64,000 nt of DNA from Candidatus Latescibacterota bacterium (GCA_965208835.1 OZ242358.1:608001-672000); one strand, 5' to 3'. Shown: positions 9,816 to 21,166, counted from the first letter of the stretch. Notes: generated by a model not told the origin, from the letters alone. A program made the numbers and translations.

Positions 9816-11924
9816 TCAGTCGCGCTTGATTATGGCCGTTCCGGCCTCGGTGAGCGTATATGCCGGGCCCTCGCCGAGCACCGTCCCCCATCTTTCGCGA
9901 CCCTGGTGCTCCAGTGCAAGCGTGATCCTGCCTCCGGGCGGGCCGCCCACGATGTAGATGCTGTCAGGACGCTGCGGAAGCAATGGTCCGTGGATCGGAC
10001 CGGGGGCTTCCTCCAAGGGAGGCGCCAGAACCAGCTGCGGCGCTCCGCCCGGGACTGCGTACCAGAAGGAGATCATCGAACCTTGCGCCCGTTGTCCCGC
10101 AACGCAGTCCGCGCCGAAAGGCAGAATCGCCCACAGGACGTCGAGCGACGTCTCGCCGGCCATCTCGAACCGGAAACGAAGGTCCACCTGATCCATCGCC
10201 TCCAGGTCTTCCGGCGGGATGTCGTAGCCGGACAGGTACTCTCTCCAATAGGGGTCGACCGGTTGCGGAACCCGTTCGAATGTCGCTGCCCGCGACGACG
10301 CCTGAAAGAGCCGGCAGGCCTGCTCTGGTGGCGTCTGCAGCCGGAGCGATCCGTCCGCGTGGATCCGGGTTTCGACTTCGTGTCCGACGTGGAAGTGGGC
10401 TTCCACCGGGCGGGTCTCAGGGCCGGAGAAGCGGACGCGATCCAGCACGAATACGACGTGGCGGTCCCTTGCGTGCAATACGGTCCGCTCGAAGGCGGAC
10501 AGGCCGGACACTTCCCGGTACGCGCGCTCCGCCCGGCAACGCGCGGCCGAATACACGTCGTTCTCGCCCCGATACACACCCGTAATCTCGCCACCGGTGT
10601 CGGGTTCGACCGACTGTCCCCGGCCGTCGAAGGTGAGCGTATTCTTGAGCGCGGTGTCGAACCTGAAATATCCTGACGGCCGGAAGAAATAGTGACCGTT
10701 TACAAAGTACGTAAACGCCGCGCGGTCTTTGTAATGGGCGTGCTTGTTCTGTGTAATGGTCTGTATGGGAAGCCCCGAATCCAGCCCCGCCTGCGCCAGA
10801 GGTCCGCCGGGAACGGTACACTCGAAGCTGAGTACGGATGCGCCCTCGTCAAACCCCGTGCGGGAGAAAAACTGGCCCATCGACGGGAAAGCGGCGGCGG
10901 CCGCCAATCCGTCCGGAGGTTCCGCTTCAACGCCGGGATCGTACCACAGGAAGCTCCAGCCGTAATCGTGATAATCCTTCAGGAACGAGCGGGCGGATTC
11001 CCGTTCCGCCTGCCACTGCGCCAGGCCGTCGTTGAACTCGGCCGCGAGTTTGTACAGTTGAAAAGCCACAACCCCGCCGGTCTCCCCGTGGTACCGGCCG
11101 CTGGGTGTCGAATCGTCAAGAAATACGTAGCTTCCGTCGGGAAGCAGGTGGTACGCGCGCCAGCACGCCAGCGCCCTCAGCCAGGGAATATCAAACGCAC
11201 TCTCCCCGAAGACCCGCTTCCTGCCCTCCAGGTAGAACAGCATCGGTCCCAGCGCGTAATTCAGAGGGGCCACGCCCTCGTTCCATGCCCCGTCTTCTCC
11301 CTGGATGGAGATGATTCGCTCAACCTCCCGTTCCACCGTGGATAACCAGGCCTCGGCTTCGGGCGCGTACGGTAACAGGGCCAGACAGCCGACGCCGGCG
11401 CCGAAGACCGGCACCCAGCAGTCGTGGTAATGGTATCGCCGGCTCCAGCCGGCCTTGCCGGTATCCATGTGCCGGACCATGCGTCCGGTCTCGACCCGCA
11501 ATACCTCGACCGCGCGCTGTACCAGCGGTTCCGGCAGGACCCGCCCGAACAGGTCCACGCCATAGGCAAGCGCCATGACGTGAAAGGCCACCAGGTAGGA
11601 CGCCCTGACCTGTTCGTCGCGTGCGCTTTCGACCTCGACCCATCGCGCCAGCCAGCGTTCGGCCAGTCCGCTCCACCTCCCGTCTCCGGTAACGTGCCAG
11701 GCGATGCCGCAGTTCACCACCAGAGAAAAACAGATCTCGAGGAGATCGCTGTACGCGGGCTCCTCCAGGTCCCAGAGCGTTTCCGGCGGATCGACAGGCA
11801 ACCGGCCGTTCAGGTCTTCGGCCATTGCCCTGAAGAACCGCTCGTGCGTCGAAGCGCTGCGATTGCGCAGTTCATCCAGTTCGCGGTCAGACAGAATCAA
11901 CCGCGGCGCCTCGGGATCGACCAT
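9816..11924 (-). CDS. Heparinase II/III-like polysaccharide lyase (alpha/alpha toroid plus beta-sandwich), no signal peptide
   Basis: PRLIL N-terminus, DGAWNEGVAPLNY, FFSRTGF, HAHYKD and NTLTFDGRGQ. Start placed at ATG 11924; the ORF-track extension to 12104 looks non-coding. Confidence 0.75.
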   Translation of the reverse strand: MVDPEAPRLILSDRELDELRNRSASTHERFFRAMAEDLNGRLPVDPPETLWDLEEPAYSDLLEICFSLVVNCGIAWHVTGDGRWSGLAERWLARWVEVESARDEQVRASYLVAFHVMALAYGVDLFGRVLPEPLVQRAVEVLRVETGRMVRHMDTGKAGWSRRYHYHDCWVPVFGAGVGCLALLPYAPEAEAWLSTVEREVERIISIQGEDGAWNEGVAPLNYALGPMLFYLEGRKRVFGESAFDIPWLRALACWRAYHLLPDGSYVFLDDSTPSGRYHGETGGVVAFQLYKLAAEFNDGLAQWQAERESARSFLKDYHDYGWSFLWYDPGVEAEPPDGLAAAAAFPSMGQFFSRTGFDEGASVLSFECTVPGGPLAQAGLDSGLPIQTITQNKHAHYKDRAAFTYFVNGHYFFRPSGYFRFDTALKNTLTFDGRGQSVEPDTGGEITGVYRGENDVYSAARCRAERAYREVSGLSAFERTVLHARDRHVVFVLDRVRFSGPETRPVEAHFHVGHEVETRIHADGSLRLQTPPEQACRLFQASSRAATFERVPQPVDPYWREYLSGYDIPPEDLEAMDQVDLRFRFEMAGETSLDVLWAILPFGADCVAGQRAQGSMISFWYAVPGGAPQLVLAPPLEEAPGPIHGPLLPQRPDSIYIVGGPPGGRITLALEHQGRERWGTVLGEGPAYTLTEAGTAIIKRD

Positions 11925-12166
11925 CGGAGGAATCCATTTCAGGATCAGGCATGAAATCGAACGGTCCGGCTTCGCAAAGCCCTTCAACCCAAGTCTAAAC
12001 CATACCGGGAGGGATTGCAAGCCCCTTTGACCGAGGAGCGGATGGCGGCGCCGTGGCGCCCGTCCGTGTCCGACGACCCCGCGGACGGGTTTCCACCGTT
12101 TCAACGCGCCGCGCGTTCCGAAACGCCCGTTGCACGTTCAGACGACAAGGACGCCGTTCGGAATTT

Positions 12167-12216
12167 CATCAAAAAATCATCGATCTCCATCAAAAAATCA
12201 GCATATATTCGAATTT
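12167..12216. promoter_or_regulatory. 13-bp direct repeat (21-bp spacing) and a palindromic site; putative regulator binding sites
   Basis: CATCAAAAAATCA at 12167-12179 and 12188-12200; ATATTCGAATTT at 12205-12216. Confidence 0.45.
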
Positions 12217-12293: not shown

Positions 12294-12321
12294 TTGACAT
12301 TCGAATATCAGTAGTTAGATT
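12294..12321 (+). promoter_or_regulatory. Putative sigma70 promoter for the leader/Fn3 transcript
   Basis: Perfect TTGACA at 12294-12299, 16-nt spacer, TAGATT at 12316-12321, with AT-rich sequence upstream. Confidence 0.55.
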
Positions 12322-12427
12322 GGCCAATGGAAGGGACTTTTGTCGGATATTTTATCGTTGATTTCCTTAGCGCTTGATGTATGAGTTGTCCCTGACAATT
12401 CAGTTGATATGTCAATTTGGAGGTAGT

Positions 12428-12556
12428 ATGGCGGTCAAGTTGCATTCGACTCACCTGAACACCCGCCAATCTACCGGAGTCTATGCCGGCGAGAATCACT
12501 TTAAGTACAATAAAAACAATTTCTTAATTACCCCCCCCCCCCCCCCTGAAATTTAA
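12428..12556 (+). CDS. Putative 42-aa leader peptide (MAVKLH...LITPPPPPEI) containing a C16 tract
   Basis: GGAGGT at 12419-12424 before ATG 12428 (short spacing). Lies between the promoter and two terminators. Confidence 0.6.
   Translation: MAVKLHSTHLNTRQSTGVYAGENHFKYNKNNFLITPPPPPEI
12531..12546 (+). repeat. C16 homopolymer (simple sequence repeat)
   Basis: ...TTAATTA-C16-TGAAATT...; I saw no other homopolymer of comparable length in the window. Confidence 0.95.
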
Positions 12557-12602
12557 GGAAGACCGTAAGGGAACCAGCAAGAGAGATTACCATCGGACCG
12601 GT

Positions 12603-12634
12603 GAAGCCGTCAGTTTTCACGGCTTCTTTGTTTT
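12603..12634 (+). terminator. Intrinsic terminator-like hairpin T1 in the 5' leader
   Basis: GAAGCCGT/ACGGCTTC perfect 8-bp stem followed by TTTGTTTT. Confidence 0.7.
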
Positions 12635-12649
12635 GTACGATCGAGAATT

Positions 12650-12676
12650 GCCACTCGCCTCGCGGGTGGTTTTTTT
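12650..12676 (+). terminator. Intrinsic terminator-like hairpin T2 in the 5' leader
   Basis: GCCACTCGC-CTC-GCGGGTGGT stem with two G-U pairs, ending in a T7 run (12670-12676). Confidence 0.75.
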
Positions 12677-12729
12677 ATTGCGCGCGATGGTCGACGGAAA
12701 TATGAACCAACCATATCTGGAGGTCTGCG

Positions 12730-15700
12730 ATGCGGCTTAACCTGACTGTTTATACCGGCACCCTTTTAGCAATCTTCGGCCGGTTGCGTCGTATTCCGGC
12801 GGGCCCGGGCCATCGGCGCATTTTGCTGACCGTACTCTTGCTGGCGTCCGCCGTGGCGCCGGCTCACGGCTCAAATATACCCACAAACCTCGTCGCGACG
12901 CTCGGGGCGGGCGGGGTCTCGCTGAGCTGGAGTGCGCCAACCGGTAACGCGTCGACTGTTACGGGCTACCAGGTTCTTCGCCGGCACCTCGGAACCGACG
13001 CAGCCGGTGTTTTCAATGAAATTGGAACGACGGGCGCCCGCCAGACAACGTACACGGACGCAAGCGTCGTGGGTGGAGCGTCGTACGTGTATCGGGTGAA
13101 GGCCCGTCGCGGGGACAAGCTGAGCGGCTTTTCGAACTTTACACGGATCGAGGTGCCGCCGGAGCCGTCGAAGCCGTCAGGGCTGAGGGCGGCCGCCGGT
13201 CACCAGTCAGTGACGCTGTCGTGGAATAACCCGAACAACGGCACGATTACGGGTTACGAGTATCGCTACCGGACGGGCGGTGCCTGGTCGGAATGGACGG
13301 CCATCGATCCGAGCGACTCGAAGACGACCAGCCACCGTGTGACGGGTCTGGTCAATGGGCAGTCGTATACGTTTGAAGTGCGCGCGCAGAACCCGGCGGG
13401 ACCTGGCACCTCGGCCAGCGTCTCGATGAGGCCTATAGGGTTTGCGCCGACGAATCTCACAGTCGCGATCGTCGCCGGTTCGGTGACGCTATCGTGGGGG
13501 GTGCCGGCGGCCGATGCCGAATTCGTTACCGGCTATCAGGTGCTGCGCCGGCGGCCTGAAGTCGACGGGGCCGGGGTTTTTCATGCGATAGCCACAACGG
13601 GCGGCAGCGAGACGACGTACGTGGACGGCGGCGTGGAAGGAGGAGAGAAATACGCCTATCGGGTGAAGGCGTTGCGCGGTACGGATTTGAGTCTGTGGAC
13701 GAAGCCGGTGAATATCGTTGCGCCGTCGGTTCCTTCGGCGCCGGGCAACCTGAGCGCGGCGGTGGGTGACGGGTCGGTGACGCTGTCGTGGGACGATCCT
13801 GACGACGACGAAATTACGGGGTATCAGGTCCGCTATACGACAACCGGGACGCGCCTGCCGGAGTGGAACAATGTCCCGGGCAGCGATGCAAACACGACCA
13901 GCCATACGGTGAACCGGCTGACGAACTGTACGGAGTATACGTTCGAGGTGCGGGCGAGAGCGGGGGACATCACAGGCGCATCGTCGAGCGTGACTAGGAA
14001 GCCGGGTGCGGCTCCGTCTCAGGTGACGGGCGTGTCGGTGACGGGCCGGGGCGATGGGACGGTGTCGTTGAGCTGGAACGGCCTCAACGACGCGACGGTG
14101 ACGGGATACAGGATCACGTACAGCGGTGCGACGAGCGGTACGATAGACGTAGCGGGCCGTACGACGACGACGCACGACGTGACGGGTCTGACCAATTGCA
14201 GCGAGTATACGTTCGAAGTGAGCGCAACGAACAGTTGTGGCGTGGGTCCTTCGTCGAGCAGTGTGACGGGAACGCCGGGCGTGGCGCCGTCTCAGGTGAC
14301 GGGCGTGTCGGTGACGGACACGGGAGACGGGACGGTGTCGTTGAGCTGGGATGGTTCTGCCGACGCGACGGTGACGGGATACAAGATCACGTACAGCGGT
14401 GCGACGAGCGGCACGATAGACGTAGCAGGCGGAGCGACGACCAGCCACCGCGTGACGGATCTGACCAACTGCAGCGAATATACGTTCGAAGTACTTGCGG
14501 TCAACTGCGTCGGGGGTGGTTCTCCTTCGTCGAGCGTGACTGGGACGCCGAGCGCGGCGCCGTATCGGGCAAAGCGTGTGTCGGTGACGGGCACGGGCGA
14601 CGGGACGGTGTCGTTGAGGTGGGAACTTTCTGCCGACGCGACGGTGACGGGCTATAGGATCACGTACAGCGGTGCGACGAGCGGCACGATAGACTTAGCG
14701 GGCCGCACGACGAAGTGGCATGACGTGACGGGTCTGACCAACTGCAGCGAGTATACGTTCAAGGTGCTTACGGTCAACTGCAAGGGTTATGGTGAACCGT
14801 CTGTCGGCGTGACGGGAACGCCTGGTGTGGCGCCGGCTCAGGTGACGGGCGTGTCTGTGACGGGCACGGGCGACGGGACGGTGTCGTTGAGCTGGGATGG
14901 TTCTGCCGACGCGACGGTGACGGGATACAAGATCACGTACAGCGGTGCGACGAGCGGCACGATAGACGTAGCAGGCGGAGCGACGACCAGCCACCGCGTG
15001 ACGGATCTGACCAACTGCAGCGAATATACGTTCGAAGTACTTGCGGTCAACTGCGTCGGGGGTGGTTCTCCTTCGTCGAGCGTGACTGGGACGCCGAGCG
15101 CGGCGCCGTATCGGGCAAAGCGTGTGTCGGTGACGGGCACGGGCGACGGGACGGTGTCGTTGAGGTGGGAACTTTCTGCCGACGCGACGGTGACGGGCTA
15201 TAGGATCACGTACAGCGGTGCGACGAGCGGCACGATAGACTTAGCGGGCCGCACGACGAAGTGGCATGACGTGACGGGTCTGACCAACTGCAGCGAGTAT
15301 ACGTTCAAGGTGCTTACGGTCAACTGCAAGGGTTATGGTGAACCGTCTGTCGGCGTGACGGGAACGCCTGGTGTGGCGCCGGCTCAGGTGACGGGCGTGT
15401 CTGTGACGGGCACGGGCGACGGGACGGTGTCGTTGAGCTGGGACAGTTCTGACGACGCGATGGTGACGGGATATGAGATCACGTACAGCGGTGCGACGAG
15501 CGGCACGATAGACGTAGCGGGCCGCACGACGACGACGCAGGACGTGACGGGTCTGACCAATTGCAGCGAGTATACGTTCGAAGTGAGCGCGAGGAACAGC
15601 TGTGACGCGGGTCCTTCGTCGAGCAGTGTGACGGGAACGCCGGGCGTGGCGCCGTCTCAGGTGACGGGCGTGTCGGTGACGGGTACGGGCGACGGCACGG

Positions 15701-18700
15701 TGACGTTAAGCTGGGACAGTTCTGACGACGCGTCCGTCACGGGATATCAGATCTTGTATAGCGGCGCCACGAGCGACACGATAGACGTCGGTTCTGACGC
15801 GACGAGTCATGCGGTGGCAGGATTGACCAACTGTGAGGATTATACGTTCGAGGTGCTTGCGATCAACTGCAAGGCGGATGGCGCACCTTCGTCGAGCGTG
15901 ACGGGTACTCCGGGCGCGGCGCCGGCTCAGGTGACCGGCGTGACGGTGACGGGTACGGCCGACGGGACGGTGTCGTTGAGCTGGGACAGTTCTGACGACG
16001 CGACGGTGACGGGGTATAAGATCTCATACAGCGGTGCGGCGAGCGGCACGATCGTTGTAGCGGGCGGCGCGACGACGACGCAGGACGTGACGGGCCTGAC
16101 CAACTGTGAGGAATATACGTTCGAGGTGCTTGCGGTCAACTGCATGGGTGATGGCGCTGCTTCGTCGAGCGTGACGGCGCGTTTGGGCAATGCGCCGGGT
16201 GCGGTGACGGGTTTGAGCGGGTCAGAAGGGGACGACGGGGAGGTGACGTTGTCGTGGACGAATCCGAGTGGTGCGACGAAGAATGAGATCCGCTATGCGC
16301 CCAAGGGCACGACCCTGCCGACGACGTGGACGGAAATCGACGCTGCGACGAGCTACGAGGTAACGGGTCTGACGAACTGCACGGAGTATACGTTCGAGGT
16401 GCGCGCGAAGAACGGATGCGGTAACGGCGGTGCGGCCAGCGATGACGCGAGGCCGGGAAGCGCGCCGGGTGCGGTGACGGGTCTGAGCGGTTCGGAAGGG
16501 GACGACGGGCAGGTGACATTGTCGTGGACGAATCCGAGTGGTGCGACGAAGAATGAGATCCGCTATGCGCCCAAGGGCACGACCCTGCCGACGACGTGGA
16601 CGGAAATCGACGCTGCGACGAGCTACGAGGTAACGGGTCTGACGAACTGCACGGAGTATACGTTCGAGGTGCGCGCGAAGAACGGATGCGGTAACGGCGG
16701 TGCGGCCAGCGATGACGCGAGGCCGGGAAGCGCGCCGGGTGCGGTGACGGGTCTGAGCGGTTCGGAAGGGGACGACGGGCAGGTGACATTGTCGTGGACG
16801 AATCCGAGCGGAACGATCACGAACAACCAGATCCGTTATGCGAAAGCGGGTACTTCGTTGCCGTCGACGTGGACGAGTATAGGCGTCAAGACGAGCCACA
16901 CGGTGGAGGATCTGGACAACTGTGATGAATATACATTCGAGGTGCGTGCGGTCAACTGTGACGGGAATGGCGGCGCGGACAGCGGTGACGCCACGCCGTC
17001 AAGCGGATCAGCGCCGGGTTCTGTGACGGGCCTGGAAGCGACGAAGGGCAACGGGCAGGTGACATTATCGTGGACGAATCCGAGCGGAACGATCACGAAC
17101 AACCAGATCCGTTATGCGAAAGCGGGTACTTCGTTGCCGTCGACGTGGACGAGTATAGGCGTCAAGACGAGCCACACGGTGGAGGATCTGGACAACTGTG
17201 ATGAATATACATTCGAGGTGCGCGCGGTCAACTGTGACGGGAATGGCGGCGCGGACAGCGGTGACGCCACGCCGTCAAGCGGATCAGCGCCGGGTTCTGT
17301 GACGGATCTGGAAGCGACGAAGGGCAACGGGCAGGTGACATTGTCGTGGGCGAATCCGAGCGGTACGATCACGAACAACCAGATCCGTTATGCGAAAGCG
17401 GGTACTTCGTTGCCGTCGACGTGGACGAGTATAGGCGTCAAGACGAGCCACACGGTGGAGGATCTGGACAACTGTGATGAATATACATTCGAGGTGCGCG
17501 CGGTCAACTGTGACGGGAATGGCGGCGCGGACAGCGGTGACGCCACGCCGTCAAGCGGATCAGCGCCGGGTGCGGTGACGGGTCTGAGCGGTTCGGAAGG
17601 GGACGACGGGCAGGTGACATTGTCGTGGACGAATCCGAGCGGAACGATCACGAACAATCAGATCCGTTTTGCGAAAGCGGGTACTTCGTTGCCGTCGACG
17701 TGGACGAGTATAGGCGTCAAGACGAGCCACACGGTGGAGGATCTGGACAACTGTGATGAATATACATTCGAGGTGCGTGCGGTCAACTGTGACGGGAATG
17801 GCGGCGCGGACAGCGACAAGGCGACGCCGTCGAGCGGGTCGCCGCCGGGTGCGGTAACGAACCTGACCGCAACGGCTGGTAACACTCAGGTGGAGTTGTC
17901 GTGGACGAATCCGAGCGGCACGATAACGCACGTCCATTTCCGATATGCACCCAAGGGAACGACCCGTTGGTCGTCTTGGGCTAGAACCGACGCCGCGACG
18001 AGACACACTGTAACGGGTTTGACCAATTGCACTGAGTATACGTTCGAGGTGTGTGCGGTCAACTGCGACGGGCCCGGCGCCGCGGACAGCGATGACGCGA
18101 GGCCGGGTAGTGCCCCAGGCGCGGTGACGGGACTGAGCGCGACGAAGGGCAACGGTCAGGTGGCCTTGTCGTGGACGAATCCAAGCGGTGCGACGAAGAA
18201 CGTGATCCGTTATGCACCCAAGGGGACGGACGATTGGTCGTCGACGGAATTTGACGCAGCGACGAATCGTACGGTTGGGGAGTTGGCGAACTGTACGGAG
18301 TATACGTTCGAGGTGCGCGCGAAGAACGGTTGCGGTACCGGCGGAGCGGACAGTGAGAACGCGACCCCTGTAGGTGTGCCTGGAGAGGTGGACGACCTGA
18401 AAGCGGCGAAGGGTGACGAGCAGGTGACGCTGTCGTGGAGTGCGCCGTCGGGGTCGTGCGGGATAACCGGATACGAGATTAGCGTTGGTGACAGGACGCT
18501 TACCACGACGGGTACGAGTATTACGGTGGATGAGCTGACGAACTGCACCGAGTATACGTTTTCGGTGCTTGCAAAGACGATGATTTCAAGCGGCGCATCG
18601 AAAAGCGTGACGCAGACGCCTGTACCCGTGCCAGGACAGGTAACGAATCTTAGCAAGGCAGAGAATGACGGCAAAGTAACACTTTCGTGGGGCGCGCCGT

Positions 18701-20181
18701 CTGGGTCGTGCGGGATAACAGGCTATGAGATTAGCAACGGGGATAACACGTATACCACGACTGGGACGAGTTTCTTTGTATCGGGATTGACCAACTGCAC
18801 CGAATATACGTTTTCGGTGCTTGCAAAGACGATGATTTCAAGGGGCGCATCCAAAAGCGTCACGGCTACACCCGGCGTAAGGCCCTCTAAGGTTACCGGC
18901 GCGTCGGTGACGTCTGTAGGTGACGGGTCGGTGACGCTGGGCTGGGACCAACATAGCGACGCCACCGTCAGAAGCTATAGGATCTCCTACCTTGTGGGCC
19001 TCATGGTCGACTCGAGTATCGCAAACGGTCGTACCACGACGAGTTACAGAGTGACAGGGTTGAGCAATTGCGTTCAGCACAATTTTCAGGTACATGCGAG
19101 AAACTGCAAAGGCTTGGGTGGCGGGTCGGATGCGTTATCGGGCACACCGGGCGTGAAGCCCGCCGCACCCACCGGACTACAGGTCACATCGGAGGGTGAT
19201 GGGTCGGTATCGTTGAGTTGGACCCAACATAGCGACACCACCGTCCGCGGGTATAGGATCATTTACGGCACCAGCGGCGCGTCGAGTGATACTGTAACCG
19301 TAACCGGCCGCGGCACGACCAGCCGCTCAGTGTCGGGATTGACCAACTGCAGCCTGTATACGTTCAAGGCGCTTGCGTACAACTGCAAAGGGGATGGAAC
19401 GTCGTCGGGCGGCGTGACGGCTACGCCACATGCGCCGATTTCCGTATCGTCCATTTCGAATAGGGTGGGGACGAAAGGCAAGGCTGTTTCAGGGTTCAGG
19501 GTAGGGGTGAGCGGCGGGTGTCCCCCGTACACCTATTCTCTTTCGTCCGACCCTTCGTCAGGGTCCAATCTCTCTATTTCGAGCGGCAGAATTTCCGGCA
19601 CACCAACCGCAACGGGGAGTTTCACGATTGACGTGGAAGTAGAGGACGGATTGGACAATTCCGGATCATCGTCGTTCACGTTTACTGTGGCGGATCCAGT
19701 CGTTATTGCCAGCATTTCGGATAAAACAGAAAGTGTGTCCGTGCCGTTCTCGGAACAGGTTTCGGTGTCCGGTGGACGTACGGCTTACAGTTATTCCGTT
19801 TCAGTTACGCCAACACTGCCGCAAGGATCGACGCTTACGATATCAAACAGCGGGCTGATTGAAGGGGAGATTACCGGCGCCGATACCTATTCCGTTACCG
19901 TCACCGTGAGCGACGCCGACAGCCGGACCGATACCGAAGAGTTCGACGTAACCGTCGGACTACCTGGCGATTTCAACGGCAATGGCAGGCGCGATGCAGC
20001 CGACGCAGAAATGCTCAACAAGAAATCCGGCCTGAGATCGTCGGATGCGGGGTATGACCGGAGGATGGACCTGAACGGAGACGGGGTCATCAATTTCGCG
20101 GATCTCGTCATTCTAAGTGGATATATACAAAAGGACGCGTCGTCGCAGAGCGATAGTGAGTCGAATGATGAATCCGAATGA
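12730..20181 (+). CDS. Giant secreted surface protein: signal peptide, 24 fibronectin type III domains, two Ig/cadherin-like (He_PIG-type) domains, C-terminal dockerin-like module
   Basis: SD GGAGGT 5 nt upstream. Hydrophobic leader ending ...APAHG. Repeats of V(T/S)LSW...GY...LTN(C/G)xEYTFEVxAxN. C-terminal GDFNGNGRRDAAD...DLNGDGVINFADL. Confidence 0.95.
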   Translation: MRLNLTVYTGTLLAIFGRLRRIPAGPGHRRILLTVLLLASAVAPAHGSNIPTNLVATLGAGGVSLSWSAPTGNASTVTGYQVLRRHLGTDAAGVFNEIGTTGARQTTYTDASVVGGASYVYRVKARRGDKLSGFSNFTRIEVPPEPSKPSGLRAAAGHQSVTLSWNNPNNGTITGYEYRYRTGGAWSEWTAIDPSDSKTTSHRVTGLVNGQSYTFEVRAQNPAGPGTSASVSMRPIGFAPTNLTVAIVAGSVTLSWGVPAADAEFVTGYQVLRRRPEVDGAGVFHAIATTGGSETTYVDGGVEGGEKYAYRVKALRGTDLSLWTKPVNIVAPSVPSAPGNLSAAVGDGSVTLSWDDPDDDEITGYQVRYTTTGTRLPEWNNVPGSDANTTSHTVNRLTNCTEYTFEVRARAGDITGASSSVTRKPGAAPSQVTGVSVTGRGDGTVSLSWNGLNDATVTGYRITYSGATSGTIDVAGRTTTTHDVTGLTNCSEYTFEVSATNSCGVGPSSSSVTGTPGVAPSQVTGVSVTDTGDGTVSLSWDGSADATVTGYKITYSGATSGTIDVAGGATTSHRVTDLTNCSEYTFEVLAVNCVGGGSPSSSVTGTPSAAPYRAKRVSVTGTGDGTVSLRWELSADATVTGYRITYSGATSGTIDLAGRTTKWHDVTGLTNCSEYTFKVLTVNCKGYGEPSVGVTGTPGVAPAQVTGVSVTGTGDGTVSLSWDGSADATVTGYKITYSGATSGTIDVAGGATTSHRVTDLTNCSEYTFEVLAVNCVGGGSPSSSVTGTPSAAPYRAKRVSVTGTGDGTVSLRWELSADATVTGYRITYSGATSGTIDLAGRTTKWHDVTGLTNCSEYTFKVLTVNCKGYGEPSVGVTGTPGVAPAQVTGVSVTGTGDGTVSLSWDSSDDAMVTGYEITYSGATSGTIDVAGRTTTTQDVTGLTNCSEYTFEVSARNSCDAGPSSSSVTGTPGVAPSQVTGVSVTGTGDGTVTLSWDSSDDASVTGYQILYSGATSDTIDVGSDATSHAVAGLTNCEDYTFEVLAINCKADGAPSSSVTGTPGAAPAQVTGVTVTGTADGTVSLSWDSSDDATVTGYKISYSGAASGTIVVAGGATTTQDVTGLTNCEEYTFEVLAVNCMGDGAASSSVTARLGNAPGAVTGLSGSEGDDGEVTLSWTNPSGATKNEIRYAPKGTTLPTTWTEIDAATSYEVTGLTNCTEYTFEVRAKNGCGNGGAASDDARPGSAPGAVTGLSGSEGDDGQVTLSWTNPSGATKNEIRYAPKGTTLPTTWTEIDAATSYEVTGLTNCTEYTFEVRAKNGCGNGGAASDDARPGSAPGAVTGLSGSEGDDGQVTLSWTNPSGTITNNQIRYAKAGTSLPSTWTSIGVKTSHTVEDLDNCDEYTFEVRAVNCDGNGGADSGDATPSSGSAPGSVTGLEATKGNGQVTLSWTNPSGTITNNQIRYAKAGTSLPSTWTSIGVKTSHTVEDLDNCDEYTFEVRAVNCDGNGGADSGDATPSSGSAPGSVTDLEATKGNGQVTLSWANPSGTITNNQIRYAKAGTSLPSTWTSIGVKTSHTVEDLDNCDEYTFEVRAVNCDGNGGADSGDATPSSGSAPGAVTGLSGSEGDDGQVTLSWTNPSGTITNNQIRFAKAGTSLPSTWTSIGVKTSHTVEDLDNCDEYTFEVRAVNCDGNGGADSDKATPSSGSPPGAVTNLTATAGNTQVELSWTNPSGTITHVHFRYAPKGTTRWSSWARTDAATRHTVTGLTNCTEYTFEVCAVNCDGPGAADSDDARPGSAPGAVTGLSATKGNGQVALSWTNPSGATKNVIRYAPKGTDDWSSTEFDAATNRTVGELANCTEYTFEVRAKNGCGTGGADSENATPVGVPGEVDDLKAAKGDEQVTLSWSAPSGSCGITGYEISVGDRTLTTTGTSITVDELTNCTEYTFSVLAKTMISSGASKSVTQTPVPVPGQVTNLSKAENDGKVTLSWGAPSGSCGITGYEISNGDNTYTTTGTSFFVSGLTNCTEYTFSVLAKTMISRGASKSVTATPGVRPSKVTGASVTSVGDGSVTLGWDQHSDATVRSYRISYLVGLMVDSSIANGRTTTSYRVTGLSNCVQHNFQVHARNCKGLGGGSDALSGTPGVKPAAPTGLQVTSEGDGSVSLSWTQHSDTTVRGYRIIYGTSGASSDTVTVTGRGTTSRSVSGLTNCSLYTFKALAYNCKGDGTSSGGVTATPHAPISVSSISNRVGTKGKAVSGFRVGVSGGCPPYTYSLSSDPSSGSNLSISSGRISGTPTATGSFTIDVEVEDGLDNSGSSSFTFTVADPVVIASISDKTESVSVPFSEQVSVSGGRTAYSYSVSVTPTLPQGSTLTISNSGLIEGEITGADTYSVTVTVSDADSRTDTEEFDVTVGLPGDFNGNGRRDAADAEMLNKKSGLRSSDAGYDRRMDLNGDGVINFADLVILSGYIQKDASSQSDSESNDESE
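14280..15440 (+). repeat. Near-exact 546-bp tandem duplication (two Fn3 domains) within the adhesin gene
   Basis: Identical 182-aa block repeated. Identical antisense ORFs at 14292-14594 and 14838-15140 are offset by 546 bp. Boundaries approximate. Confidence 0.9.
16190..17830 (+). repeat. Near-exact 270/276/279-bp single-domain tandem repeats within the adhesin gene
   Basis: GCGCCGGGTGCGGTGACGG recurs at 16192, 16462 and 16732. TITNNQIR-type domains recur four times at 276-279-bp spacing. Confidence 0.9.
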
Positions 20182-20356
20182 TCGACTGGGCCGACGGGTT
20201 CGATCATGGTGACAGTTTCACCATGATTCGACTCGCTCGTGGTAGACATAATTCATCGCCAAGGCCATTTGGATTCTCTGTTACTTTGGCATGGATTCAA
20301 CTGATCGCAGCATTCACGACGTCACCGCAGCGGTGACACCAGACGGGGAGGTATCT

Positions 20357-21166
20357 ATGAGTAACCGCATTATTTCAATAGCTTGTTCGGCGTCTGTTTT
20401 TATGGGTACGGCCTTCGCGGGAGAGATGACCACGGGCCTCGACGTCGGCGGAGGACTCAACGCTTCTGCAAAACTGACGCTGGAACGTGTGGACGATCGG
20501 GCCGCCGAGAAGGGAACTCTAAGAGTGCGCGTCTCTTTGTCTCAGGTCACGAACGTCAAGGGTTACGGCTTTTTGCTGCTATATGACCCGGCGAAGTGTG
20601 AGTTTGTAGAAGCCACGAAACTTGCGGACAATTTGCTGAAATCGGATGCCGGCGGGAAGCCGGTGTTCATGGCCTCAATCCCCACACCGGGCAAATTGGA
20701 AATCGGCGCGCTAAACGTCGACGATAAGGGCGTAAGCGGCAAGGGCGGCCTGGTGGATCTCGTCTTCAGGTTGAGCGAAACAACGTCGTCATCGGATTTT
20801 CATGTCTCTGAGAGCGTGCTGGTGGGTCTGGACGGTGCGGTCGAACCGTTAACGCACGTCGAGATCGGCGACCTCAGGCCGCTCCCCGATGCCTACGGTC
20901 TGGATCGGAACGCGCCGAATCCGTTCAATCCGTCCACGGTCATAGGTTTTCAGCTTCCCGAGGCCGGCAGGGTACGGCTGGTGATCTACAATCTGCTCGG
21001 CCAGCAAGTTCGTGAACTTGTAAACGAAAAAATGGAGGCAGGTTACTTCACGGCGACGTGGGATGGGACGGATGCACTGGGCCGGCGGGTTGCGAGTGGG
21101 GTCTATCTCTATCGGATACAGGCAGGGAACTTTTCGGCGGTACAGCGCATGTTGTTGCTGAAATAG
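20357..21166 (+). CDS. Secreted cohesin-like domain protein with FlgD-Ig/T9SS type-A C-terminal sorting domain
   Basis: SD GGAGGT before ATG 20357 and signal peptide ending AFA. Cohesin-like VKGYGFLLLYDPAKCEF...GKGGLVDLVF. CTD NAPNPFNPST...IYNLLGQQV...SGVYLYRI...RMLLLK. Confidence 0.85.
   Translation: MSNRIISIACSASVFMGTAFAGEMTTGLDVGGGLNASAKLTLERVDDRAAEKGTLRVRVSLSQVTNVKGYGFLLLYDPAKCEFVEATKLADNLLKSDAGGKPVFMASIPTPGKLEIGALNVDDKGVSGKGGLVDLVFRLSETTSSSDFHVSESVLVGLDGAVEPLTHVEIGDLRPLPDAYGLDRNAPNPFNPSTVIGFQLPEAGRVRLVIYNLLGQQVRELVNEKMEAGYFTATWDGTDALGRRVASGVYLYRIQAGNFSAVQRMLLLK

Follow-up and report, generated by a model that had tools for sequence, protein, structure and literature searches.

A cytosine homopolymer as candidate frame selector in a leader reading frame upstream of a giant Fn3/dockerin gene, within a cassette that recurs in Latescibacterota

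The DNA analyzed here is a 64,000-nucleotide (nt) stretch from a Candidatus Latescibacterota bacterium (GCA_965208835.1 OZ242358.1:608001-672000; genome G000), referred to below as the window, within which all positions are counted. It carries a gene for a giant Fn3/dockerin protein preceded by a short leader open reading frame (ORF) that runs into 16 consecutive cytosines (C16), and two intrinsic terminators stand between the leader and the gene (Table 1). The initial annotation of this stretch proposed that the length of the cytosine tract decides in which frame the leader ends and hence whether transcripts reach the gene. On re-reading, all of its coordinates proved correct, namely those of the leader Shine-Dalgarno (SD) sequence, the leader ATG at 12428, the tract, the terminators, the stops and the gene start at 12730. 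As a listed ORF the leader frame extends over 12374-12556. Its ATG lies 28 codons before the lysine of the motif described below, and its C-terminal residues are KYNKNNFLITPPPPPEI, that is, ...KYNKNNFLIT-PPPPP-EI-stop, with the five prolines of the assembled allele placed 57 nt before terminator 1. The preceding gene (9816-12104) lies on the opposite strand, so the terminators at 12603 and 12650 do not serve to end it. The segment that holds both hairpins (12595-12685) folds at -32.3 kcal/mol, compared with -24.8 ± 3.0 for shuffled sequences (z = -2.52; 3 of 200 shuffles equal), and a consensus scan returned three terminator-like calls where 1.6 ± 1.4 are expected. The same scan placed the only promoter-like site that it found 210 nt upstream of the tract.

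Walking the three frames out of the tract yielded stops at +10 from the tract end for C16, at +3 (TGA) for C17 or C14 and at +194 for C15 or C18, in agreement with the initial annotation. Only the frame entered at C15, C18 or C21 crosses both terminators and ends on the start of the main gene. Its TAA (12738-12740) follows the prolines by 64 codons and falls 11 nt inside the main ORF, whose ATG is at +183 from the tract end. The stretch of 64 stop-free codons is present as described but is not above chance by itself: of 1000 dinucleotide-shuffled versions of the 183-nt spacer, 230 likewise had some frame without a stop between the tract and the main start. The window's open frame is unremarkable when taken alone, which counts against reading it as functional, and the case consequently has to be made from other genomes. 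The C16 tract is the sole G/C homopolymer longer than 10 in the 5.18-Mb genome (59.5% GC), in which cytosine runs number 498 for C6, 66 for C7, 10 for C8 and one for C10 before the single C16, and the longest guanine runs are one G10 and one G9. The sole G10 (221698-221707) and C10 (5119358-5119367), both outside the window, are reverse-complementary copies over at least 40 nt on each side, an inverted duplicate whose halves lie far apart on the chromosome.

We searched 41 related genomes at the DNA level for homologues of the leader. A genome of the same family and another genus (G015) held two copies (G015a and G015b) with 71-73% identity over window positions 12502-12680, a span comprising the pre-tract sequence, the tract (C18 and C23 in G015), the G-rich block and terminator 2. 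By eye, G015b also has TTGACA-17-TATAAT upstream of its leader, at a position comparable to that in the window. Terminator 2 is kept in both copies and in G010, which together with G000 make up all four loci of the window's subtype; the G010 element is an orphan with no large ORF downstream. In G022, from another family, the same pre-tract words precede C14 and C17 tracts in the 5' coding part of two SGNH-like genes. No further copies of the leader were found in the window's own genome, and neither leader nor tract was found at a similar gene start in G004, a member of the same genus, which indicates that the cassette is a module independent of this gene.

Across 53 genomes of the order, a pattern of the shared words matched 12 distinct loci, located in 9 of them, and a reversed-pattern control matched none. 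When one genome per prokaryotic species was scanned, at least 119 stretches matched. Among the 80 loci listed, 60 are titled Candidatus Latescibacterota, with 10-20 matches in some genomes; the other 20 come from scattered taxa, mostly with C11 and with unrelated flanks, and are excluded from all counts. Matches in metagenome-assembled genomes of Pseudomonadales and Rhizobiaceae (L042, L064 and L109) lie, by eye, in an apparently conserved coding region (...ETYIGGKPRK...) interrupted by C11-C17, which may be a transposase-like gene with a poly-C tract of its own. Two scans of Joint Genome Institute metagenome contigs gave 0 matches to the pattern. The 60 loci, together with eight from the order-level scan that were not already among them, form the 68-locus set used below.

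The cassette at these loci begins with a leader ORF of about 35-45 codons that ends [R/H]K[S/L]L-K-N-x-x-L (over the nine pre-tract codons, [R/H]-K-[S/L]-L-K-N-[N/K/S]-x-L) and then enters the poly-C, read as polyproline. Upstream of the tract, 57 of 68 loci keep the motif frame free of stops over 29 codons or more, compared with 2 and 10 for the other two frames, and an ATG stands 15-50 codons upstream in the motif frame in 49 of 68, compared with three in each of the others. Where the search pattern had left the base free, the first and second positions of the nine codons carry 1.0-1.9 bits, and third positions carry 0.3-0.55 bits, apart from 1.2 and 1.6 bits at pattern-free bases of the first two codons; synonymous alternatives (AAG/AAA, TCG/TCC/TCA, TTA/TTG, AAC/AAT) are used within the motif. 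Codon-periodic conservation of this kind is a signature of constraint on the predicted peptide. The pre-tract DNA looks palindromic, and a hairpin at this position was considered and rejected, as base pairing at its four variable positions is no more frequent than in shuffles and its remaining five pairs are almost invariant. Within two paralogue families, neither the remainder of the leader nor the long frame showed codon periodicity, suggesting that beyond the nine codons openness is kept and sequence is not. In one paralogue family every gap in the leader alignment is a multiple of three. The window shares two extra codons after the motif (K-N-N-F-L-I-T, then C16) with G015 and L081. The leader peptide had no match in Pfam or NCBIfam.

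Homologous tracts range from C11 to C27. Those of L054, L033 and L108 are interrupted (for example C15-T-C9 and C14-T-C4-T-C3) and may be decayed or stabilised switches. The upstream region of L044 shows internal repeats, about four tandem copies of a GC-rich unit of about 37 nt, situated roughly 170-320 nt upstream of the tract and just before the leader ORF (one paralogue family, by eye).

The frame logic of the window recurs across the 68-locus set. Five loci are cut by the end of the fetched DNA, and in 10 the long frame is itself a large ORF, the classical in-ORF arrangement, which we call fused. In 34 loci the long frame ends within 25 nt of the ATG or GTG (TTG in one case) of an ORF of at least 150 amino acids (aa), usually preceded by an SD sequence, and in another four it ends 32-38 nt from such a start. 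Among the 34 coupled loci the frame and the start overlap by 4 nt (ATGA) in 13 and by 13 nt in eight, the overlap in the window being 11 nt, and the long frames are 160-490 nt in length. In most loci the other two frames stop about 3-31 nt after the tract, and they average 3.44 stops each over the interval from tract to start. Between paralogue spacers there are many indels of lengths not divisible by three, yet each spacer keeps one open frame. Each locus is only weakly significant in shuffle tests, so the argument is one of recurrence across diverged paralogues. By assembled tract length 20 of 63 loci are ON, and tract lengths modulo 3 are evenly spread over the 68 loci (21, 20 and 27); about one third ON is the expectation for random lengths.

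We also carried out a motif-blind census of every poly-C tract of at least 12 in three complete or near-complete Latescibacterota genomes, a sample that overlaps the 68-locus set. It returned 67 tracts (31 in G053, 14 in G054 and 22 in G055), of which 58 are preceded by the motif. Of these 58, 54 have a leader frame that runs 29 codons or more without a stop and 47 have an ATG 15-50 codons upstream, and in nearly all relatives two of the post-tract frames stop within about 30 nt. The long frame (160-490 nt) ends within 28 nt of the SD-preceded ATG or GTG of a large ORF in 37 of the 58, often with an ATGA overlap, and five are fused to the gene. By their assembled tracts 12 of the 42 coupled or fused loci are ON and 30 OFF, although homopolymer lengths in assemblies are unreliable and the individual states are not to be leaned on. 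Thus the same leader ORF, nine-codon motif and frame logic recur at dozens of loci per Latescibacterota genome.

Tract length differs between otherwise matching sequences. Two species (G040 and G051a) have identical flanks over the 280 nt compared, with C11 in one and C12 in the other, and by frame the step from C11 to C12 turns a signal-peptide protein of more than 500 aa from OFF to ON. The window's own locus was recovered from four runs, none of them an RNA run and all kept as contigs, with C16 in X1, C17 in X3 and C18 in X2; in X4 the contig breaks at the tract into unitigs of C13 to C18 (word depths 18, 17, 14.2, 13, 10 and 4, respectively), and the graph bubble holds 13 further pieces beyond those. 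The ON lengths C15 and C18 are represented. The initial annotation had asked for tract lengths to be tabulated; they vary among contigs and are not invariant, but the spread is not distinguishable from homopolymer stutter and could be technical, and the four runs come from one sample and one study that may be the source of this genome.

We ran Pfam on the main genes of ten coupled and five fused loci in relatives. They encode proteins with leucine-rich repeats (LRR) and LDL-receptor-B (YWTD) repeats, giant He_PIG proteins, combinations of LRR with Fn3 or of cadherin with Fn3 and LRR, WD40/PD40 and PQQ propellers, HlyD, a dynamin-like protein, a glucose/sorbosone dehydrogenase with cytochrome c, an arylsulfotransferase-like protein, a nucleotidyl transferase and one protein without a match. 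Most begin with a signal peptide by eye. The set appears to consist mostly of secreted or repeat proteins, and the predicted Fn3/dockerin giant of the window fits within it.

Together our results make it probable that the C16 tract selects the reading frame of a phase-variable leader ORF and that this ORF controls expression of the predicted giant Fn3/dockerin surface protein. The comparative evidence, the leader frame and the frame logic all support the initial proposal that poly-C length sets the leader frame, that one length in three is ON and that the assembled allele would be OFF. On a C16 or C17 allele the ribosome would be released 47-54 nt before terminator 1, both hairpins would form and transcription would end before the gene, with Rho perhaps also loading on the exposed poly-C; the assembled C16 allele would behave in this way. 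On a C15 or C18 allele the translating ribosome would follow the polymerase, block both hairpins and terminate 8 nt after the main ATG, where it may reinitiate. For the window the weight would fall on antitermination, with reinitiation a possible bonus. Since the long frame contains a terminator-like hairpin of 7 bp or more at only 12 of the 53 non-fused loci, OFF across the family may instead reflect Rho-dependent polarity or lost coupling. In E. coli, elongation factor P (EF-P) prevents the uncoupling of polyproline translation from transcription at intrinsic terminators and rut sites (excerpt of PMC5021804), and effects of sequence context on polyproline stalling are known (excerpt of PMC4176338). 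The genome of the window encodes both rho and efp. With at least five prolines directly upstream of the terminators, ON output may also be sensitive to EF-P and proline supply, and one could speculate that the conserved residues before the prolines tune a stall.

Several observations weigh against this reading, in addition to the limits on tract lengths given above. The TTGACA hexamer that the initial annotation placed at 12294 is present, but one promoter-like site compared with 0.7 ± 0.8 in shuffles is the number expected by chance. Within the window's subtype, terminator 1 is not conserved in G015 by eye. In G015a and G015b the frame aligned to the window's long frame meets an early TAG, and a different register is the open one; that open frame crosses their terminator but leaves a gap of 124-197 nt to the following large ORF. 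The longest frame of G010 falls 17 nt short of the terminator stem, with no large ORF behind it. The expectation that relatives would keep the read-through frame open was thus borne out for the recurring cassette (34 of 53 non-fused loci) and failed for the aligned frame of G015. Fifteen of the 68 loci show no relation between the long frame and a downstream start, and 16 of the 58 census loci are neither coupled nor fused. A few loci (L052, L101 and L085 among them) lack a leader start, and by eye two large paralogue families have no obvious SD sequence at the leader ATG. The shuffle tests for one representative of each of five sequence clusters left a frame open in 109, 103, 66, 364 and 230 of 1000 shuffles, and the paralogues are not independent, so their statistical weight is moderate. 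The paucity of hairpins inside the long frame (12 of 53) is a further point. Translational coupling to the adhesin, also part of the initial proposal, is partly upheld: the overlap of long frame and start recurs, but coupling is not obligatory in the window. The region of the main ribosome-binding site (RBS; 12677-12765) is less structured than shuffles (z = +1.66), and coupling is therefore not needed to open it; a sequestered main RBS that would force coupling was not found.

Of the explanations that compete with antitermination by a frame-selected ribosome, one retains the leader-frame switch and assigns OFF to Rho-dependent polarity, to lost translational coupling or to both, leaving the hairpins as local reinforcement. 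Poly-C is a strong Rho substrate, and Rho would be drawn to the exposed tract and the untranslated spacer once the ribosome had been released early. A rho gene is present in the genome, and 41 of the 53 non-fused loci keep the frame logic without a terminator-like hairpin of at least 7 bp in the long frame; termination by Rho under the control of an upstream ORF (uORF) has been reviewed (excerpt of PMC12360218). In the window, however, two strong hairpins with T-runs are present (z = -2.52, as above) and all four loci of the subtype (G000, G010, G015a and G015b) keep terminator 2; we regard this account of the window as unlikely. We give still less credence to a self-contained small gene, in which leader and terminators would yield a peptide or small RNA whose product varies with tract length and the adhesin would be transcribed from a promoter of its own. 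Such a gene could be read from the two tandem terminators, which end a transcript of about 300-350 nt before the main gene, from the open main RBS, which could act independently, from the leader and terminator of G010 with no large gene behind them, and from the homologous gene start of G004 without a leader. Against it, the consensus scan found no promoter-like site in 12680-12730, and a permissive Rfam search matched only the terminators, with terminator-like hits that fell far under the gathering score (best InvR, 21.7 bits compared with 60). Moreover, the peptide is unconstrained beyond its nine codons, and a stand-alone gene would have no use for a long frame that, across the family, terminates at the main start. 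A structured leader RNA or riboswitch, considered separately, was rejected: the minimum free energy of 12328-12760 equals that of shuffles (z = 0.06), which also speaks against a structured small RNA.

It is very improbable, in our judgment, that tract length acts at the level of nucleic acid and not of frame, whether by altering the spacing of a promoter, in the manner of Bordetella fim and Neisseria opc, or through the structure of the 5' untranslated region (UTR). Simple sequence repeats (SSRs) in 5' UTRs that act by RNA structure are known from H. influenzae hmw1A (excerpt of PMC12721329), a second class of poly-C tract in the order (described below) sits in the 5' UTR directly before the SD sequence, and a G-rich block follows the tract in the window. 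Yet the consensus scan found no promoter-like hexamers flanking the C16 tract, the range from C11 to C27 is too broad for a promoter spacer, and the pre-tract conservation is codon-periodic where hairpin covariation was not found; in a pure length model, two immediate stops and one long frame have no role. We find it scarcely credible that the tract arose as an error of assembly or sequencing, or that it is a neutral, slippage-prone relic without function. Long homopolymers are error-prone and the contigs disagree in length, but the tract is present in contigs of all four runs, it is the only long G/C run in the genome and it lies within a cassette conserved in many genomes.

The principle of a leader-peptide repeat that controls a terminator is known from the pil1 pilus operon of S. 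gallolyticus, where short leaders stop 39 bp before the terminator and frameshifted long leaders stop within or beyond it and block the hairpin (excerpt of PMC3894217). The frame selector proposed for the window resembles it in having a hypermutable repeat within a leader ORF, in short leaders that stop before a terminator (OFF or low) and long ones that stop within or beyond it (ON), and in a surface adhesin or pilus as the regulated product (same excerpt). The pil1 repeat consists of GCAGA pentamers, whereas the repeat in the window is a C homopolymer read as polyproline, and the window differs further in its two terminators, the ending of its long frame on the main start codon and the conserved nine-residue context. 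There is no sequence homology, which makes the two analogues and not homologues. Scale differs as well: pil1 is one operon, whereas the Latescibacterota cassette, known here from sequence alone, occupies dozens of loci per genome across the phylum.

Other systems share single elements with the cassette. Contingency loci with the repeat inside the ORF, as in Campylobacter (a C. jejuni example is given in an excerpt of PMC11955535), Neisseria and Haemophilus, likewise combine frameshifts at G/C homopolymers with surface or envelope targets and about one third of alleles in frame. In the window, by contrast, the tract lies outside the regulated gene, separated from the main ATG by 183 nt, and most relatives likewise carry theirs in an upstream ORF 160-490 nt away, the fused type accounting for 10 of 68 or 5 of 58 loci. 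In uORF attenuation and Rho termination of the tnaC and mgtL type the position of the ribosome on a leader ORF also decides transcription, but those systems sense a metabolite (excerpt of PMC12360218), whereas the input proposed for the cassette is a heritable, stochastic change of DNA length. Polyproline directly upstream of terminators or rut sites, a placement by which read-through was shown to become EF-P-dependent, is shared with the cases of EF-P coupling, in the cassette after a conserved peptide context (compare excerpts of PMC5021804 and PMC4176338); those cases are engineered or scattered in E. coli, a dedicated cassette that occurs naturally and repeatedly is not known from that literature, and the cassette's dependence on EF-P is proposed by analogy. 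The hmw1A locus resembles the cassette in a transcribed leader repeat upstream of a large adhesin gene but acts by a long hairpin and RNase III with a graded response (excerpt of PMC12721329), whereas the cassette has no structure signal and a period-of-three logic. In promoter-spacer SSRs of the fim and opc kind the tract lies between -35 and -10, and the window tract is not so placed.

The window appears to be one instance of an apparently undescribed, phylum-wide phase-variation device. A search of the open literature on leader-peptide, uORF and homopolymer phase variation, with subscription journals and supplementary files outside its scope, returned only pil1 as an analogue, and a search for Latescibacteria together with phase variation or homopolymers found nothing relevant. 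In the literature surveyed, phase variation by leader peptide and attenuation is otherwise documented essentially for one streptococcal operon; here the same logic would serve an uncultured phylum as a standard, reused part before large secreted repeat proteins. Latescibacterota may thus diversify their surface stochastically on a scale associated with host-adapted pathogens, though they are known from environmental samples. For annotation the implied rule is that the ON or OFF state of such genes depends on an unannotated upstream ORF, and homopolymer errors in long-read metagenomes would fall exactly at the biologically relevant sites. The device is compact (an ATG, nine codons, a C-run and a spacer) and is a candidate tunable stochastic switch.

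More tentatively, and with more doubt than belief, we suggest a portable, phylum-specific cassette before dozens of surface-protein genes that would combine three layers: frame choice by slippage, an EF-P-dependent stall tuned by the motif, and poly-C as a site of Rho loading upon early release. Were this true, ON alleles would also sense translation capacity or proline supply, and the loci together would form a combinatorial generator of surface phenotypes unlike described contingency systems in architecture and scale.

Table 1. Features of the leader region and main gene, in window coordinates.
Feature	Position	Strand	Description
Sigma-70-like promoter candidate, TTGACA-16-TAGATT	12294-12321	+	Consensus scan, 10/12 matches
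SD sequence GGAGG of leader ORF	12419-12423	+	4 nt before ATG; read from sequence
Leader ORF, assembled C16 allele	12428-12556	+	42 codons, TAA 12554-12556
Conserved pre-tract codons, K-N-x-x-L motif	12503-12530	+	Here K-Y-N-K-N-N-F-L-I-T
C16 homopolymer	12531-12546	+	Proposed hypermutable frame selector, read as polyproline
Stop codons ending the short (OFF) frames	12547-12556	+	TGA 12547-12549, TAA 12554-12556
Long (ON) frame, entered at C15/C18/C21	12546-12740	+	64 codons, spans both terminators
G-rich block common to G015/G010 leaders	12555-12575	+	Alignment, by eye
Terminator 1	12603-12636 (hairpin 12603-12626)	+	8-bp stem, 8-nt loop, T-run
Terminator 2	12650-12680 (hairpin 12650-12670)	+	9-bp stem, 3-nt loop, T7 run
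SD sequence GGAGG of main gene	12719-12723	+	Read from sequence
Main gene, putatively regulated	12730-20181	+	2483 aa; 23 Fn3 domains, He_PIG domains, C-terminal dockerin

A second class of poly-C tract was seen in G022 and G034, genomes of the same order (loci L153-L188). There the word ...GTACA[A/G]TGTA precedes C15-C31, and a G-rich SD sequence with an ATG 14-17 nt on opens signal-peptide proteins with acidic D-x-D repeats. Of the 37 tracts of C12 or longer fetched from the two genomes, 28 belong to this class, whose tract lies in the 5' UTR or promoter, outside the ORF.

In the window, the gene after the Fn3 giant (20291-21166) encodes a cohesin domain and a FlgD-Ig or type IX secretion system (T9SS)-like C-terminal domain, and the dockerin giant with its cohesin neighbor looks like a cellulosome-style anchor pair displaying a phase-variable protein. 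The divergent intergenic region upstream of the leader contains, at 12166-12200, two direct copies of an A-rich 13-nt word, CATCAAAAAATCA. Short matches to this word occur elsewhere in the same genome and in four related genomes, and the repeat could be bound by a regulator or belong to the promoter of the minus-strand gene.

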